Shown here: positions 4,736 through 64,000 of the stretch, one piece after another | Layout: the number at the start of each line of letters is the position of its first letter | Position numbering within the stretch: position 1 is the stretch's first letter | Sequence record: OP168898.1 | Direction: 5' to 3' (one strand) | DNA length: 64,000 bases | Source of the DNA: Escherichia phage ZCEC14 | Made by a program: the position numbers and the translations under genes | Notes under the pieces: model-generated | What the model saw: the letters and a program-made list of their open reading frames with translations, nothing else | Told to the model about the DNA's origin: nothing | Databases searched by the model: none

Positions 4736-7684
4736 TTAGAATTTAAAATAATTACTAATTTTGCGAGCAATTTTAGTGAAGAAAGGCGTTTTTAATTCTT
4801 TAATTTCTTCGCTCATTTCTTGGATAGCCTTAATTAAAAGAGCATTCACAGCGGAGTTAGAAATTGTCAGAACATCAGATCCATCAACTTCAACTTTAGA
4901 CACAGCTTCCGGTAATTCTTTTTCAAGATCCTGAGCAATAATACCAACTTCACGTTTAATAACACTACGATCTTTAATAGACTTAACCTTATCGTATGTA
5001 TAAACTTTCAGTCGGCATACTTTTTCAAGTGCTCCGTTTTCTAGCTCTTTTTTATTAATCTTAAGACGACCATCGGAACGAATATACACATCGCTAAAGT
5101 TACCATTACCAGGAGAATAGAAAGTACCGTCGTAATGAAATTCAAATACCGCGTTAGGATGACCAGCATCAGGAGAAGCCTCCGCAGATCCAACACGAAT
5201 AATTGCTTGTCCCCAATTATTAGGGACACGACGAATACCAAGATCGACGGCAGTTACAAACCCTTGATTGGTGATTACACTTCTTCCTTTAATAATTGGA
5301 TAATAACAATCCTGTGAAACATAACCATGATCGACGAATATTGGCGCTTCTACTCGCCATTGGTTGCCCCAATCACCTGGTTGACTAGCAGTCCAACGTT
5401 CACCATGAACATATAATCGAACGTTATTGACATGAGCCATTTCGACGCCTTTTGGACTTAGCGTGATATCTCCTGCGTTTGTAATGTATACACCAGCATT
5501 AGTAGCATAACTATAGAACGCTAATCCATTATCATCACCACCCTTACCAATATACCAGTTACCAGTCCCGTCTACGTCACCACGAATATGCAAAGAATTA
5601 CTAGCAGGTGCTGATAATACAATAGAATCACCTGGGCTTTGAATTGTCAAGCGTCCGGTCATAATATCACCGCTTTTACCTACGCGAGTATTCAAAGCAG
5701 CGTCTAAGTTGGTTGCATCGTTGTATTTCTTCCAGATTGAACCAGCAATGTTACCATCAGTGTTCAAGAATGCTGCGCCAGCATAAACTCGACTTTGTGA
5801 CATGAATCGGCCAGACGGCAAGAAACGCCATGTAGCTAATTCGTTAGCTGTAGTTCCAGTAGCGGATAAATCACCTTGAGCAATGATACGATATTCTGAA
5901 CTAGCAATATCCATACCAGAAGCCATAGTAATATTTGTTACAGTGTTTTTCTGTTTTACAATAGGAGCAAACTGGTTTTTATTTGAATCGTCAATGGCCT
6001 GATATAATGGCGCAATAGTAATATTCTGATTTGCGTAAGTATTTGAACCAGAACCGCTAGCAGGGCCTTGAATATATGATCCCGGAGCAATTGAAATTTT
6101 CTTATTAGCACCAAGATTAATATCAGCGGTGATATTTAGCAATCCCCTAAAGTTTTGTTGAGCAGTCCAAGTATGTGATCCGTCTTCAAGAACAACACGG
6201 CGACAAGTGTTAGTCCTGTTTCCTGGATTTCCAGCTATACGCACAACAAAATAACGGTAGTTTGTTTGGGATACAGTACCACGCCAAACCTGAACAGTAC
6301 GTCCTGTGCCAGTATGTTCGCTAGGACCAACGGAAAACATAACCAGGTTTCCATCAATCGTGCCCCAATCCATATTTGCTGGCATATTCTTTATTTTTTT
6401 CAAAGGAACGCTAAACATACTACCAGGAACAAAATCAAAGGTTTGCCAATCTAACTCCGATAATTGAGCTTTAATACCACCCATACCCAAAGTAATTGGC
6501 AGAGAATAAGATGTATATACTTCGTTCCATGCACCCCACGCACCACCAGTATATGCACGCTCAAAAATACGATCGCGAGTAGTTTCACCCGTTCCGGCAG
6601 TAGTAAATTTTTGGAAAATAGCACCACCAGAAGCACGCTGTTTAACTTCTAGCAAACCAACAATAACGGCTGGTAAACCTTCGCCTGTAGGGCAATTAAT
6701 AACGGCATCAGTGCCTAAAATATTATATAACCCAGGAGTTTTAAAATCATTCAGATCTCCATCATAAAAAGTCGCTGGTGTGACATTACCGACTTGTTGC
6801 CACGGTCCCCATTTAGGCGCAGAAGCATCCCATGCAGCAGCAAGACAGCGAGTATAAACAACACCAGATCTAGTTGTATAACGCTGAGTTCTTGTGTATA
6901 AACCACCCTCAAAAATTTCCAAAAATCCTTGCGCGGCTGCTCCTTCTTCTGGGTAATGACGGTCAAACGATGCAATAGAACTTGAACTATTTCGCCATAA
7001 GCCGCAATGTTCTAATTCTCCCAAGCTATCAAGGTCAATCGTTTGTGAAAGTGGACGAGTTGACGCTTGAACATTACGCCAAACTCCCCACGGACCGTTA
7101 ACACCGTTCCATTTAGCAGACAAAGATCGAACATATACGTTACCAGATCTTACAGTATATCTCTGAGTACCAGCAAATTGACCGGCCACAAATACTTCTA
7201 GTACACCTACGGCATTTTCTTCTGGGAATTTATTTGCCGGTTGCGCATTTGTTGAAGTAGATTTCGACCAAACCCCAAGATATTCTTCAACAGGCCCATA
7301 CTCATCTAAATTAGCATCAACCGGTAATTCGCCGTTATTTTTTATAAACGTTGTGCTATTGACATTTATGTCAGATGGAGTTAGCGTGATATCTTTTGAC
7401 CCATCAAAGGATATACCATTAATTTTCCTAGGTGTTTGCAATTTAGTAGCTGTGCTAGAATTTCCAATTAAAGTTCCAGTTATATTTCTATTAACAGTTA
7501 AAGAACCATCAATTGTTCCTCCATATTTTAAACCTAATTCTATAACATTGCCTGAGTCATCTTTTGTGAAAATTGCTTTATCTTTTAAATTAATAGCCAA
7601 TTCACCTTCGGCTAATACTGAAGCAGCAGGAAGTTGACCTGCGGTTTTGCTTCTTTTAAATTGTATTTGTTTTAAAGTAGCCAT
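4736..7684 (-). CDS. 37: gp37 long tail fibre distal subunit with C-terminal intramolecular chaperone domain
   Basis: 982-aa ORF, Gly/Ser/Thr-rich fibre sequence; last ~113 aa carry the SDGRLK motif typical of self-cleaving chaperone domains; synteny 34-35-36-37-38. Confidence 0.9.
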
Positions 7685-55259: not shown

Positions 55260-56543
55260 TTATTCATCAATAATAATTTTTGGTAATTTAACACCTAATA
55301 AAACAGACAAATCTGAACGACCCGCCATTTTATCCATGTCTCCACCATCAATTATTCTTGCTTCTTTTTCATCTTTTGCTACGGTATAAGGATTTGCTGA
55401 TAAAGCATATCTAACTAATAAACCGATAGATGGTTGTAAGCTTTCTGGATCAACTACAACTTTAAATGCACCTACATGTTCAGGGTCATCTAAGTCAAGA
55501 CCTTCTGTATACGGAGCATAGAAAATTGATCCAACAATTTCTTTTTCGCCAATATTTTCTACCACACCAACGATTACATAATCTAATGGGCTGTTAGTAT
55601 CGCAATAAAGCGGTAAACCATTAGCTAAGAACCCATAGGCATTTTGTGAAAGATATTTATCATCTTCTGGTTTATGTTTTAACCAACCTGATGCAGCAAG
55701 AATCGCGGCGGCACGAGCTGAAGCAACACAGAACGTTGCTGTATAAGTTGATTCTTTTTGGATATGCGAAACCATTTCACACACCATTCGATATAATGAA
55801 CGACCAGCTTCAGGGGCAGATGCATAACTCAAATCAATGAATCCAGTATCAGTAATTCCTGTAACTTTATAGCGTTTTGACACTGTAATCAAAGACTGCA
55901 GAATATCTTTATTGATTTCATCTGCCATTTCAGTTGCAAGCAAATCTTCCAAGAAATTAGGAGCATCGAATCCATTTGCTTCTAAATCTTGTGCTAATTC
56001 GACTGTGATGCCAGTTTTAAGTTTACGAGATTTAACTGCGGTTTGCCATTTATTAATCTGGAATCTAGCATCCGCAATTTCACTATCAGAGCTTTCAAAT
56101 TTGCTTGTTACTGCAGCATCAGAAAATAGACGAACTTTTAAAAGAACAATTGCAATCTGAAGAGCTAATTCTAAATCGCTTTCTTCAATATCAGCAAATG
56201 GTGTATCTTCTAATACTTTATAAACGATATTATTATATTTGAATAAATCGCCTTTATTGAGAGTTAATTTAGACTCTTCTGTTAATTCTGTGATTTGTTC
56301 TCGGTCTACATATCCAGCTTCGCCAGCATAAGTAGCACCAGTTTTAAATGTAAATTCGTTGTCTGGGTTAAGGTATTTGATACCATAAAAAGCAGCAACA
56401 GGTTGATTAGTTCTTTGCGTTGCTACAATGTCAGAATATATTAATTTAGTGGTAGCGCGAGTCAAAGCAACGAGATTTGGGCGACCGATTGAGTTGCTAT
56501 TCGTTGTGGTTGATTCGCGCAGAAGTTCGTTGATTTTAGCCAT
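55260..56543 (-). CDS. 24: gp24 head vertex protein
   Basis: 427-aa ORF, T4 length; synteny next to gene 23. Confidence 0.9.
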   Translation of the reverse strand: MAKINELLRESTTTNSNSIGRPNLVALTRATTKLIYSDIVATQRTNQPVAAFYGIKYLNPDNEFTFKTGATYAGEAGYVDREQITELTEESKLTLNKGDLFKYNNIVYKVLEDTPFADIEESDLELALQIAIVLLKVRLFSDAAVTSKFESSDSEIADARFQINKWQTAVKSRKLKTGITVELAQDLEANGFDAPNFLEDLLATEMADEINKDILQSLITVSKRYKVTGITDTGFIDLSYASAPEAGRSLYRMVCEMVSHIQKESTYTATFCVASARAAAILAASGWLKHKPEDDKYLSQNAYGFLANGLPLYCDTNSPLDYVIVGVVENIGEKEIVGSIFYAPYTEGLDLDDPEHVGAFKVVVDPESLQPSIGLLVRYALSANPYTVAKDEKEARIIDGGDMDKMAGRSDLSVLLGVKLPKIIIDE

Positions 56544-56570
56544 TGCGCTTTCCTTTTGGTTTATATGATT

Positions 56571-56578
56571 TATTTATA
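56571..56578 (-). promoter_or_regulatory. late promoter (TATAAATA) for gene 24
   Basis: TATAAATA on the - strand 28 nt upstream of the gene 24 ATG. Confidence 0.6.
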
Positions 56579-56595
56579 CCATAAAAACAACTAAA

Positions 56596-56611
56596 GGGAC
56601 CCGAAGGTCCC
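56596..56611 (-). terminator. hairpin after gene 23
   Basis: GGGACC-UUCG-GGUCCC on the - strand transcript, 16 nt after the gene 23 stop. Confidence 0.55.
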
Positions 56612-56626
56612 TTAAATCGTCAAAGA

Positions 56627-58192
56627 TTAGATACCTTTAACATATACACGGCGGAAGTAAGCGTTTTTACCAAGGCTATTCAGAATAGAAGGCATACCGC
56701 TCTGGATGCGAGAAGCCGGAGCCTGAGCAGCGGATTCTGCAAATGGGTTGATACCGATACCGTAACGAGTTTTGAATCCCATTACCGGTTGGAAGTTCTT
56801 CGGATCGGAACCACGCAGCGGAGTCAGAGCTACATATGGAGCATAGTAAATACCAGCATCCATTTCATTCGGACCTTTATAACCTACAGTGAAATAATCC
56901 TGTTTAGCATACTGGTCGATATATACACGGTATTTACCACCCAGAACACCAGCAAATACTGACTTGGTAGTATCAGTGTTAAAGCCAGTAGCCAGACCCT
57001 GTGCAGCATAAGAAATGCCAGTATCAACTGAAGCCAGAACGTTAACTACGTTACGGGAAGCGATAATGAAGTTACCTTCGCCACGACCGGTCTGACGAGC
57101 AATTTCAACTGCTTCTTTGTCAATCTGGAACAACAGAGCTTTAAAGGATTCACCTGCCCAGCGAGCACCACGAATATCGATTGGGTCCTGGAAGTCAAAT
57201 ACACCAGCTTTAGAACCCGGAGTCAGGGTCATACCAGATTTACCAACCTGAGCTGAGTAGTTAATCCAATCAACAACTTCACGGTTGATTTCCAGCATAA
57301 TTTCTGTAGCCAGAATACCAGACAGTTCAGCATCAGCATCCATACCGTGAACAGCGCGGAGGTCTTGTGCTAATTCGATAGAGTAAGCAGCTTTCAGCTG
57401 GCGAGATTTAGCTTCGATAACTTGTTTATCGATACGGAAGCCCATTTCATTCCATGGGTTATCGGTAGAACCATTGAAACCTTCCTGGAGTTCAGCGATA
57501 GAAGTAGCCATACCTTCAGCGATTTCTACTAGTGCACCAGCTTCCATTTGTTTCTTAACTTCGGCATCTAATTTAGCAGCATCAGTCGCGCTAGAACCAA
57601 GTGTTACGACAGCAGAAGCTTGCAGATATACGGTACCAGTTTCCTGGAAGAAGTGAGAATAAATGTCACCTACTACTGTAGTGGTATTAGCAGCCAGAGC
57701 TGGGAATTTCTTAGCAGCACCCTGACCAGAGAACATTGCATCTGGACCATACATTGGGTGGAATGCTTCTTTAGCACCGGCAGCCACCGGATCTTTACCA
57801 TATACTGCACGCAGTGCGAATACCTGGCCAGTCGGGCTGTTCATCGGCTGAACACCGCAAATATCGAAAGCAATCAGGTTAGGAATAGCACGACGTACCA
57901 TACCCATAACAGCTGGGCCAATCTGAGTTACTGCGCCAGAAGTCTGACCTGCAGCGATGTTGGTAGCATTGTAACCGTGGTCACCGCCGATTTCAGCTTC
58001 TGTTAAGAAAGAACCGAATGCCTGAGCAATTTTTTCGTCTTTATATTCCGGAGCTGTCTGGAAATCTTTTTCCTGGTTTTCAAAGATTTTAGCGATAATC
58101 GCTTGTTTGCTATTAGCAATTTCCGGTAAACCTTCACCTTCCAGTAATGGCTTCCATTTGTTCAAAAGTTCAGCTTTAGTTTTGATAGTCAT
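56627..58192 (-). CDS. 23: gp23 major capsid protein
   Basis: 521-aa ORF matching recalled T4 gp23 (MTIKTKAELLNKWKPLLEGEG...). Confidence 0.95.
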   Translation of the reverse strand: MTIKTKAELLNKWKPLLEGEGLPEIANSKQAIIAKIFENQEKDFQTAPEYKDEKIAQAFGSFLTEAEIGGDHGYNATNIAAGQTSGAVTQIGPAVMGMVRRAIPNLIAFDICGVQPMNSPTGQVFALRAVYGKDPVAAGAKEAFHPMYGPDAMFSGQGAAKKFPALAANTTTVVGDIYSHFFQETGTVYLQASAVVTLGSSATDAAKLDAEVKKQMEAGALVEIAEGMATSIAELQEGFNGSTDNPWNEMGFRIDKQVIEAKSRQLKAAYSIELAQDLRAVHGMDADAELSGILATEIMLEINREVVDWINYSAQVGKSGMTLTPGSKAGVFDFQDPIDIRGARWAGESFKALLFQIDKEAVEIARQTGRGEGNFIIASRNVVNVLASVDTGISYAAQGLATGFNTDTTKSVFAGVLGGKYRVYIDQYAKQDYFTVGYKGPNEMDAGIYYAPYVALTPLRGSDPKNFQPVMGFKTRYGIGINPFAESAAQAPASRIQSGMPSILNSLGKNAYFRRVYVKGI

Positions 58193-62019: not shown

Positions 62020-62511
62020 TTATTCCCAATAATCGAGAGCAAGAGTTACTTCAAAGGTTTGGATTTCATTGTTTGAATCCCAATCTAATTGAAGTTCACC
62101 CACGTTAGTAGGCCACAGACCTTTAATTTCAATTTCTTTTGTTACTGTTTTAGCGTCACGAGCATATTGACGAACGATAGCGCTCTTTTTATACTCTGCA
62201 GGTTTTCCACCAGTAATTTCGTTTCCTTGCCCCGCAGCAATGCTTTGCCAATCAACAAACTTCTGGCGAGCATCATGTGCCTCATCGTTCATTACTGTAA
62301 CAGTCCAGTCATCGAATGTACGATCGCCTGCTACGTTAATTTTACGATTCATAAATCCGACTGGAATTTTTTCTACAATACCAGCTGGTAGAGCAGTAGC
62401 TTTACATTGGAATGTAAAATTTTGTCCAAGATAAGAAATTTCTACTTGGAATAAGTTAGGTCGAGCAAAATCACCAGATTCAAACGCTCGTGTTACATCA
62501 TCTACAAACAT
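62020..62511 (-). CDS. 19: gp19 tail tube protein
   Basis: 163-aa ORF, T4 length; synteny. Confidence 0.9.
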   Translation of the reverse strand: MFVDDVTRAFESGDFARPNLFQVEISYLGQNFTFQCKATALPAGIVEKIPVGFMNRKINVAGDRTFDDWTVTVMNDEAHDARQKFVDWQSIAAGQGNEITGGKPAEYKKSAIVRQYARDAKTVTKEIEIKGLWPTNVGELQLDWDSNNEIQTFEVTLALDYWE

Positions 62512-62525
62512 ATTAGCCTCTGTAG

Positions 62526-62533
62526 TATTTATA
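62526..62533 (-). promoter_or_regulatory. late promoter (TATAAATA) for gene 19
   Basis: TATAAATA-CTACAG-AGGCTAAT-ATG on the - strand. Confidence 0.6.
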
Positions 62534-62584
62534 TCCCTATGTTTAACCTAGGGCATATAGAATTAAAGAATTAAGGATATAGTG

Positions 62585-62592
62585 TATTTATA
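62585..62592 (-). promoter_or_regulatory. second TATAAATA late promoter, directly after the HNH gene
   Basis: TATAAATA on the - strand right after the hairpin at 62594-62611. Confidence 0.5.
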
Positions 62593-62618
62593 TGGCCTGC
62601 CGAAACAGGCCTTTAGAA

Positions 62619-63269
62619 TCATTCTAGTAAATCCCAAAGATCTACACTATTTCTTTTTGATTTTTCTCGGTTAGATTCCCAAGTGATTATTTCTAAATTA
62701 TTAATACCGCCAATTATTTCAGCAGGAATTAAATTATCAAAACCGTATTTGATAGATACCTTATGATCAAGTTGGTAAGCACCTTTTGTACCGCACACTC
62801 CTATTTTATCAGCATTTGGCCATTTTGACCAAATTTTCTTATGCTTACGAGTTTCTTTATATACCAATGAAATATATTCACGCATTTCAGATTTATTTGG
62901 GTTCCATCTTGGATGATTTACGCCATGCATACATTCTACTGTTTTTCCTTTATTCGCGGAACCATATGAATTATTGCGCATTTTATCTTTATGACGGCAA
63001 TCACGACAAATATCAGTGTTTCTTCCAATGCGTTGGTTATATTCAATTCCACATTTATCGCAACGGCATTTTACATACGCGGTACTACCTTTAATGTCTT
63101 CAACTTTAACATCAATTTCATAATACCTAAATCCATGTTTAACCGCTCCAAGAGGTGTTAATTTATAACCCTTTGATTGATAATGTTTAAAATTTGATGG
63201 TACAATTTTCACTTTAACAAACTTAGAAATAATCACTTGTTTCCTCGAGAATAGGGGCCGAAGCCCCAT
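62619..63269 (-). CDS. HNH endonuclease, 216 aa
   Basis: ATG at 63269 (track start 63275 is TTG); zinc-finger-like CRCDKCG...CRDCRH and HNH motif YQLDHKVSIKYGFDN...NLEIITWESN. Confidence 0.75.
   Translation of the reverse strand: MGLRPLFSRKQVIISKFVKVKIVPSNFKHYQSKGYKLTPLGAVKHGFRYYEIDVKVEDIKGSTAYVKCRCDKCGIEYNQRIGRNTDICRDCRHKDKMRNNSYGSANKGKTVECMHGVNHPRWNPNKSEMREYISLVYKETRKHKKIWSKWPNADKIGVCGTKGAYQLDHKVSIKYGFDNLIPAEIIGGINNLEIITWESNREKSKRNSVDLWDLLE
63254..63267 (-). promoter_or_regulatory. GC hairpin overlapping the HNH start codon
   Basis: - strand RNA GGGGC-UUCG-GCCCC directly after the gene 18 stop; includes the first two nt of the HNH ATG. Confidence 0.5.
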
Positions 63270-63275
63270 AATCAA

Positions 63276-64000
63276 TTAACCTGCAAGACCAGTTAACTCA
63301 TCGAAGTCTGCACCAGTAGCAGTTGCGACGAAATTCAAAGTAATATAATTTATACTGCGCGCCGGTTGGATGTAGAATGTTGCAACAAACTCATTTCTAT
63401 CAATTACTGACGGAGTGTTATTTGTTGTATCGCAAACTACACGATATTCATAAATTCCACCGAGAGCTTTAATTCCCTGTAAGTACTGGGCAGTTTCTGT
63501 GCGGAATGATGAACGAGTAAACGCGTTGTTTAATTCGAACAAACGATATTTTGAACTACGTCCGATATTTGTTTTCAACATATTAAACAGACGACGAACG
63601 TTAATACGATCAAACGGAGAAGGAACAGAAGTAGCTGTTTTATCACCATACAATACGTAACCATCGCCACCTGTACCAGTTACCGGGTTGATAGCTTCTT
63701 GGTATAAACGGTCGCGCTGAGCCTGGCGAGTTTCAATAGCAAGTTTAATAACGTTAAGAATCTGGCCACGATTATAACCAGCTGGAGACATCCAAGTCTG
63801 AGATACGTTATCAGTTCTTGCGCATAAACCAGCAATATCAGCTGCTAATGGAACCCAACGATTCACATCATTATATTTGTCATACTGATACTTGTAGTTA
63901 CCATCAATTGCTGCGTAGGTTGAACTGATATTAAAGTTATTATCAGTGTATGAACCTGCAGCAGTTCTCCAATTGACTAAGTTATCAACAGCACGAGTTA
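63276..64000 (-). CDS. 18: gp18 tail sheath protein, C-terminal part (5' end outside window)
   Basis: reading frame open to the window edge; C-terminus ...GADFDELTGLAG; position upstream of gene 19. Confidence 0.8.
   Translation of the reverse strand, partial: TRAVDNLVNWRTAAGSYTDNNFNISSTYAAIDGNYKYQYDKYNDVNRWVPLAADIAGLCARTDNVSQTWMSPAGYNRGQILNVIKLAIETRQAQRDRLYQEAINPVTGTGGDGYVLYGDKTATSVPSPFDRINVRRLFNMLKTNIGRSSKYRLFELNNAFTRSSFRTETAQYLQGIKALGGIYEYRVVCDTTNNTPSVIDRNEFVATFYIQPARSINYITLNFVATATGADFDELTGLAG

Follow-up and report, generated by a model that had tools for sequence, protein, structure and literature searches.

The stretch of DNA analysed here, hereafter the window, comprises 64,000 nucleotides of Escherichia phage ZCEC14 (sequence record OP168898.1). 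Its sequence is that of a T4-like phage (Tequatrovirus), with Escherichia phage HY03 as the closest record (99.9% identity over 1001 bases). Late structural genes are encoded on the minus strand of the window. Among them are gene 18, which encodes the tail sheath protein gp18 (Pfam Phage_sheath_1C 6e-24 and Phage_sheath_1 2e-23), aligns to T4 gene 18 and ends with a TAA stop codon at 63278-63276, and gene 19, which encodes the tail tube protein gp19. Between them, on the same strand, lies an additional open reading frame (ORF). A previous reading made from the letters alone (the sequence-only reading) had described it as an ORF of 216 amino acids, and this length is obtained when translation is read from the ATG at 63269. 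Members of its family, PHROG 5104, are annotated nearly everywhere as 'hypothetical protein', bear the name 'gp19.1' in T6 and VR7 and have no Pfam assignment. The features of the locus are listed below in the direction of transcription.

63276..64000, minus strand: 3' part of gene 18 (tail sheath), running off the window end
62620..63275, minus strand: inserted segment of 656 bp, relative to insert-free T4, T2 and fPS-2
63267..63269, minus strand: ATG taken as the start in the sequence-only reading, in frame, 6 nt past the gene 18 stop
63254..63267, minus strand: insert-borne hairpin GGGGC-UUCG-GCCCC, -10.8 kcal/mol
63242..63246, minus strand: Shine-Dalgarno sequence GAGGA, spaced 5 nt from the GTG, not paired in the centroid fold
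62619..63236, minus strand: likely coding sequence, 205 aa, GTG start, TGA stop at 62621-62619
62838..63214, minus strand: allele-specific segment, aa 8-133, 49% nucleotide identity between the RB3-type and T6-type alleles
62997..63062, minus strand: zinc ribbon C59-x2-C62-x14-C77-x2-C80 (205-aa numbering), N-terminal, presumed DNA-binding domain
62670..62768, minus strand: HNH-like catalytic core D157-H158 ... N180 ... N189, predicted strand-strand-helix
62594..62611, minus strand: resident hairpin GGCCUGU-UUCG-GCAGGCC, -12.8 kcal/mol, 0 of 200 shuffles as stable
62585..62592, minus strand: resident TATAAATA box (late-promoter consensus), outside the insert
62526..62533, minus strand: resident TATAAATA box, outside the insert, 14 nt ahead of the ATG of gene 19
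62020..62511, minus strand: gene 19 (tail tube), Pfam Phage_T4_gp19 3e-16, ATG at 62511

Elsewhere in the window, a gp23-like ORF (56627-58192) and the next large ORF on the minus strand (55260-56543) are only 83 nt apart (56544-56626), and no ORF of at least 150 aa was found between them. T4 has segD between genes 23 and 24; this element seems to be absent from the corresponding place in the window.

The boundaries of the additional segment were determined by aligning the 18-19 junctions of the window, RB3 and fHoEco02 with those of T4, T2 and fPS-2. In the latter three genes 18 and 19 are adjacent, and 8 bp stand in place of the 656 bp of the window. This 8-bp spacer is TACGGTGC in T4 and T2 and TACGATGC in fPS-2, so that the insert-free order reads gene 18 TAA, TACGGTGC (TACGATGC in fPS-2), ATTCTAAAGGCCTGTTTCGGCAGGCCATATAAATAC, gene 19. 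The junction distance is 656, 655 and 644 bp with the insert and 8 bp without it. From ATTCTAAAGG on, a stretch that covers both TATAAATA boxes and the second hairpin, the six aligned sequences do not differ; the TGA stop codon (62621-62619) has its final A in this resident sequence. RB3, ADUt, fHoEco02 and the window share the insert junctions, which are identical between RB3-type and T6-type genomes. According to the alignment, the insert sits in the short stretch that separates the gene 18 stop codon from the resident hairpin of the 18-19 intergenic region. The flanking genes have a GC content of 39-40%, the insert one of 33%. At the 18-19 junction of the insert-free genomes compared, no remnant of the ORF was found.

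The sequence-only reading had regarded the ORF as an insertion relative to T4, and the comparison bears this out: an insert-free allele exists, and empty sites are common. Among 669 matching phage records, 47 carry the allele of the window, which we call RB3-type, and 70 carry a second, T6-type allele. Other matching records that were inspected matched in the flanks only, and most Tequatrovirus records are without the ORF, which is hence not shared by all relatives. Empty sites occur in T4, T2, RB14, RB32 and RB51, and presence or absence varies among phages whose matched flanks are 95-99% identical. Where present, the gene nearly always occurs as a single copy (240 places in 239 records), and it is usually intact, with 232 of the 239 copies spanning 80% or more of the query. 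No match was found in 5,426 E. coli genomes, and a host origin is therefore not supported. Two of the records encountered, MG010123.1 ('Staphylococcus phage SAJK-IND') and PV654520.1 ('Pseudomonas phage vB_PSGBLB0006'), are 94-99.7% identical to the Tequatrovirus region and are likely mislabelled or contaminated database entries.

In each of the ten lineages that were inspected (Tequatrovirus, S16, VR7, Bp7, IME540, QL01, Acj61, POP12, AS-zj and phiM12), out to Sinorhizobium phage phiM12, the sheath gene is directly followed by a homologue, and gp19 comes next after the homologue in every one of them except phiM12. Two metagenomic relatives lie directly before gp19. One relative with DUF7487 repeats and the same C-terminal domain is located in an unrelated genomic context. 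That even very distant phages have a homologue at one and the same place could mean that the gene is an old resident with a role for the phage: a member of the tail block inherited vertically from a T4-like ancestor, for example a domesticated nuclease that excludes competitors or processes DNA, and cleanly lost in T4, T2 and many others. The intactness of nearly all copies and the invariance of their catalytic residues (see below) would be expected of such a gene, and so would flanks that are free of a co-conversion signature. Indeed, no SNPs segregate with the insert within 200 nt to the left and 131 nt to the right in seven genomes, a comparison of little power since these flanks are nearly invariant, and near the junction the genomes with the insert do not differ from insert-free fPS-2 and T2.

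Vertical inheritance is, however, difficult to reconcile with the alleles themselves, which are grossly incongruent with their flanks. In the Dhakaviruses Bp7, IME540 and QL01, gp19 is 100% and the gp18 C-termini are 99-100% identical, whereas the ORFs between them are only 39-69% identical. In Tequatrovirus, the flanks of the RB3-type and T6-type alleles are 99% identical, whereas the N-terminal domains of the proteins (aa 9-100) share 26% identity; towards the C-terminus (aa 136-205) identity rises again to 90%. At the nucleotide level, the divergent segment is bordered by 61 of 61 identical positions on the left and 199 of 221 (90%) on the right. Judged by these comparisons, each of the two Tequatrovirus alleles is a mosaic of the other. 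Presence or absence with exact shared boundaries and no remnant, between flanks as similar as those mentioned above, likewise argues against a resident gene, and so does the low GC content of the insert. We therefore consider the resident gene an unlikely explanation. A lineage of site-specific homing endonucleases accounts better than a vertically inherited gene for copies that are intact, present in some relatives and absent from others, and replaced by other alleles at one constant site.

Several side observations were made in the neighbourhood of these homologues. The Dhakaviruses contain a further ORF of 193 aa between gp19 and gp20 (Bp7 L012:3769-4350, IME540 L014:3747-4328, QL01 L016:3885-4466) with sub-threshold matches to SegE_GIY-YIG (0.0046) and NUMOD3 (0.011); by these matches it is probably a second gene of homing-endonuclease type, one junction downstream. 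The portal gene of Bp7, gp20, is split in its annotation into two neighbouring coding sequences (L012:4408-4731 and 4737-5630), which may be due either to a frameshift or sequencing error or to a real split. The metagenomic T4-like contig SRR19603261_68025, which carries a 385-aa relative before gp19, also has an intein (Intein_splicing) interrupting its portal gene (Portal_T4; L018:2105-4324).

The protein encoded by the ORF appears to consist of two modules. The zinc-finger-like cysteine cluster and the HNH motif (YQLDHK...NLEIITWESN) pointed out in the sequence-only reading can both be read in it. In the N-terminal module, C59, C62 and C77 are invariant and C80 is nearly invariant among 24 relatives. 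The CxxC...CxxC arrangement resembles DUF4379, a treble-clef zinc finger that is matched below threshold by 18 of 70 relatives, and the module gives profile matches to mS66 zinc modules. Longer relatives carry DUF7487 repeats joined to the same C-terminal nuclease domain; the window protein itself stays below threshold for both DUF4379 and DUF7487. An exhaustive profile search retrieved 6129 representatives at E<=1e-3, and none of the 37 clusters of the family found by a word-indexed search has a Pfam domain.

Assignment of the C-terminal module is less direct. The HNH profile match that the sequence-only reading had suggested looking for did not appear for the window protein, neither in Pfam nor in NCBIfam at E<=1. 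A PADLOC scan assigned the protein to no defence or nuclease family. Among PDB sequences, searches by phmmer and by profile returned zinc-finger-type N-terminal matches only and no HNH, and Foldseek against the PDB gave nothing at E<2. Sub-threshold matches were obtained with relatives, namely HNH_4 in 6 of 70 (best 9.5e-4) and HNH in 4 of 70 (3e-3); in one of them (P0153) the HNH match covers residues 119-161, which by profile coordinates is the motif region. The sole invariant columns in 70 diverse relatives are D157, H158, N180 and N189, and these four are also invariant in the sets of 24 and 35 sequences. In AlphaFold models (pLDDT up to 85; pTM 0.47 for the full length and 0.73 for the C-terminal domain alone), the motif falls on two strands and one helix. 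By structure, the protein is best matched by two small nicking endonucleases of HNH type, Gme HNH (4h9d) and phage GVE2 HNH (5h0o). We keep the HNH call because motif invariance, sub-threshold matches in relatives and fold matches offset the missing profile match; on these grounds the window protein is likely a member of the HNH fold. T4 MobE itself barely passes the threshold of a curated HNH profile (21.5 versus 21.4 bits). Some Klebsiella phage records bear the label 'type II restriction endonuclease', for which we saw no support.

In the window protein, the last histidine of the motif is replaced by asparagine, and the cysteine pairs of the usual HNH zinc site are missing. These deviations and the lack of an HNH profile over threshold would suit a decayed or non-catalytic HNH-like DNA-binding protein, e.g. 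a regulator that binds the 18-19 intergenic region, all the more as I-TevI doubles as a repressor at its own operator (PMC2988022). Invariance of D-H...N...N in 70 diverse relatives, however, points to selection on catalytic residues. The HNN variant (D-H...N...N) is active in the nicking enzyme I-HmuI, and the best structural matches named above are active nicking enzymes as well. We thus regard a non-catalytic protein as quite improbable and consider an active HNH-type nuclease more probable.

Where translation of this protein begins bears on the role of the hairpin in front of it. The profile of PHROG 5104 (3e-91) aligns with its position 1 at the GTG at 63236-63234, i.e. residue 14 of the long ORF. 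All relatives share the N-terminus MIISK or a close variant of it, and several of them start on GTG. In upstream extensions made by gene callers, the residue before IISK is V, i.e. GTG, and the N-terminal extension upstream of the GTG is not conserved among relatives. In Salmonella phage S16, the gene 18 stop is followed by a hairpin (GGGCC-UUCG-GGCCC) and then by the GTG, with no ATG between. Existing annotations differ, RB3 being annotated from the GTG and ADUt from the ATG. Taken together, conservation of the N-terminus suggests that GTG 63236 behind GAGGA, not ATG 63269, is likely the true start; termination-reinitiation after gene 18 might still allow translation to begin in part at the ATG, which lies only 6 nt past the gene 18 stop.

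The hairpins and TATAAATA boxes were found by sequence search and folding just where the sequence-only reading had placed them. Its view of what they do did not hold up in the same way. The insert-borne hairpin (63267-63254) begins 8 nt past the gene 18 stop and ends 7 nt ahead of the Shine-Dalgarno sequence; 8 of 200 shuffles fold equally well, and in the alignment the hairpin is missing from T4 and T2. The ATG had been described as buried in it, but only a single base of the codon, G63267, is part of the stem. Limitation of translation by the hairpin had also been proposed, but the likely start GTG 63236 and its Shine-Dalgarno sequence lie 7-18 nt downstream of the hairpin, and neither is paired in the centroid fold. 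As a whole, the stretch 63215-63300 folded no more stably than its shuffles (z -0.63), and the Shine-Dalgarno sequence was not sequestered.

Insert-free T4, T2 and fPS-2 carry the second hairpin (62611-62594) and both TATAAATA boxes without a single base change, which marks these elements as resident sequence downstream of the insert. The box at 62526-62533 is a 'predicted late promoter' in the annotation of fPS-2. No TATAAATA is present inside the insert, nor anywhere above 62592 in the window, and without a TATAAATA of its own the insert is a promoter-less cassette. An intrinsic terminator scan of 62300-63500 found none, and accordingly neither hairpin is a classical terminator with a U-tract. 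The model built on the sequence-only reading, a self-contained cassette which brings its own terminator-like hairpin, restores a late promoter for gene 19 and masks its ATG by a hairpin, is very improbable, for although hairpins and boxes are where it expects them, ADUt is annotated from the ATG and reinitiation there is conceivable, the downstream hairpin and both TATAAATA boxes are present in T4, T2 and fPS-2, which refutes it for these elements, a single ATG base is in the stem while Shine-Dalgarno sequence and GTG are unpaired, and the conserved N-terminus begins at the GTG, S16 having the hairpin and the GTG and no ATG.

The insert-borne hairpin has counterparts in other phages. Stable hairpins, differing in sequence each time, lie between the gene 18 stop and the ORF in S16, VR7, Acj61, Bp7 and phiM12, and a hairpin at this place is a feature of the family; in Bp7 and phiM12 a run of T follows it. 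In insert-free T4, the resident hairpin is located 16 nt past the gene 18 stop, as compared to 8 nt for the insert-borne hairpin of the window. The hairpins of VR7 (L009:2465-2487, -14.1 kcal/mol) and Acj61 (L010:2457-2487, -16.6 kcal/mol) contain a TATAAATA late-promoter box, a layout which resembles the I-TevI-type arrangement, though the Shine-Dalgarno sequence is outside the stem. A third, weaker stem-loop (CCCUA...UAGGG, window 62534-62552, -6.7 kcal/mol, no better than shuffles) abuts the gene 19-proximal TATAAATA box and is invariant in the six phages aligned.

Free-standing endonuclease genes of T4-like phages provide the closest parallels. Like T4 mobA-mobE, the gene is a small free-standing ORF between conserved T-even genes, encodes an HNH-type motif together with a zinc module, lacks its own promoter and is found in some relatives but not in others. 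Seven free-standing endonuclease genes of T4 are promoter-less cassettes (PMC2988022), as is the one of the window. MobE is a characterised free-standing HNH homing endonuclease of T4 (PMC2790892); hhalign of the family profile detected no relationship to MobE, the only Mob protein compared (probability 0.1%). Moreover, proteins of the Mob class are described with the HNH at the N-terminus and the zinc finger at the C-terminus (PMC10448857), whereas the domain order is reversed in the window protein, with the zinc ribbon N-terminal and the HNH C-terminal. With respect to the hairpin, the closest described layout is that of seg43(25) of Aeromonas phage 25, where a very stable hairpin lies immediately upstream of the ribosome-binding site and does not hide it (PMC2988022). 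The same layout is found at 63267-63234 of the window, although seg43(25) belongs to the GIY-YIG family and occupies a gene 43 site. In I-TevI, I-TevII, I-TevIII, segB and Aeh1 mobE, a hairpin hides the ribosome-binding site and a late promoter lies inside the hairpin. The hairpin of the window likewise precedes an endonuclease ORF, and those of VR7 and Acj61 also hold TATAAATA, but the window hairpin includes neither the Shine-Dalgarno sequence nor the GTG nor a late promoter.

A literature search on the gene and its site returned no paper describing either; the 'gp19.1' found there refers to SPP1 proteins. A review of T4 mobile elements from 2010 (PMC2988022) never mentions gene 18 or gene 19 and does not list the 18/19 site, and in a survey of the same year (PMC2993671) RB3 has no entry under 'other HNH'. 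The best reading of the sequence comparisons is that the family, itself uncharacterised, adds to the free-standing HNH homing endonuclease genes of T4-like phages, which are well known as a kind.

We propose that the insert is a probably selfish, promoter-less, free-standing, site-specific gene of homing-endonuclease type, which belongs to an uncharacterised HNH-fold family (PHROG 5104) and occupies one site. We assign this reading a probability of roughly 0.7. According to it, late gene 18 transcripts would read through into the gene, and ribosomes would start at GTG 63236, which follows GAGGA. The zinc-ribbon domain at the N-terminus would recognise the insert-free 18/19 junction, and the C-terminal HNH domain would nick or cut it; by analogy to I-HmuI, D157 and N189 would bind the metal and H158 would act as general base. 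Recombinational repair from an insert-bearing co-infecting genome would then copy the gene into the empty site. By splitting TAA|TACGGTGC|ATTC, the insertion would destroy its own target. As every lineage inspected has the homologue at the same junction, the target is presumably highly conserved.

Insertion would push the resident hairpin 650 bp away from gene 18, and the insert-borne UUCG hairpin would take over its place. We infer that the insert brings along a replacement 3' hairpin for gene 18 transcripts. This hairpin may stabilise or attenuate these transcripts rather than mask a start codon, and it may limit read-through into the nuclease gene. For annotation, two corrections follow: the gene likely starts with GTG, and the downstream hairpin and promoters belong to the phage, not to the insert.

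The points of interest are the fixed junction and the modular allele swap. Two Tequatrovirus alleles coexist which have unrelated recognition domains and near-identical catalytic domains. Tentatively, we envisage a new family of HNH-type nucleases tied to the sheath-tube junction, in which the DNA-recognition module is exchanged while catalytic module and flanks stay constant. Not just selfish elements, its members might act in the competition between co-infecting phages by excluding the tail genes of the rival, and the substitute 3' hairpin of gene 18 might lower the cost of insertion; we hold this wider picture to be rather unlikely. The carriers RB3 and T6 and the empty-site phages T4 and T2 are standard laboratory phages, which makes homing, exclusion and target specificity directly testable.
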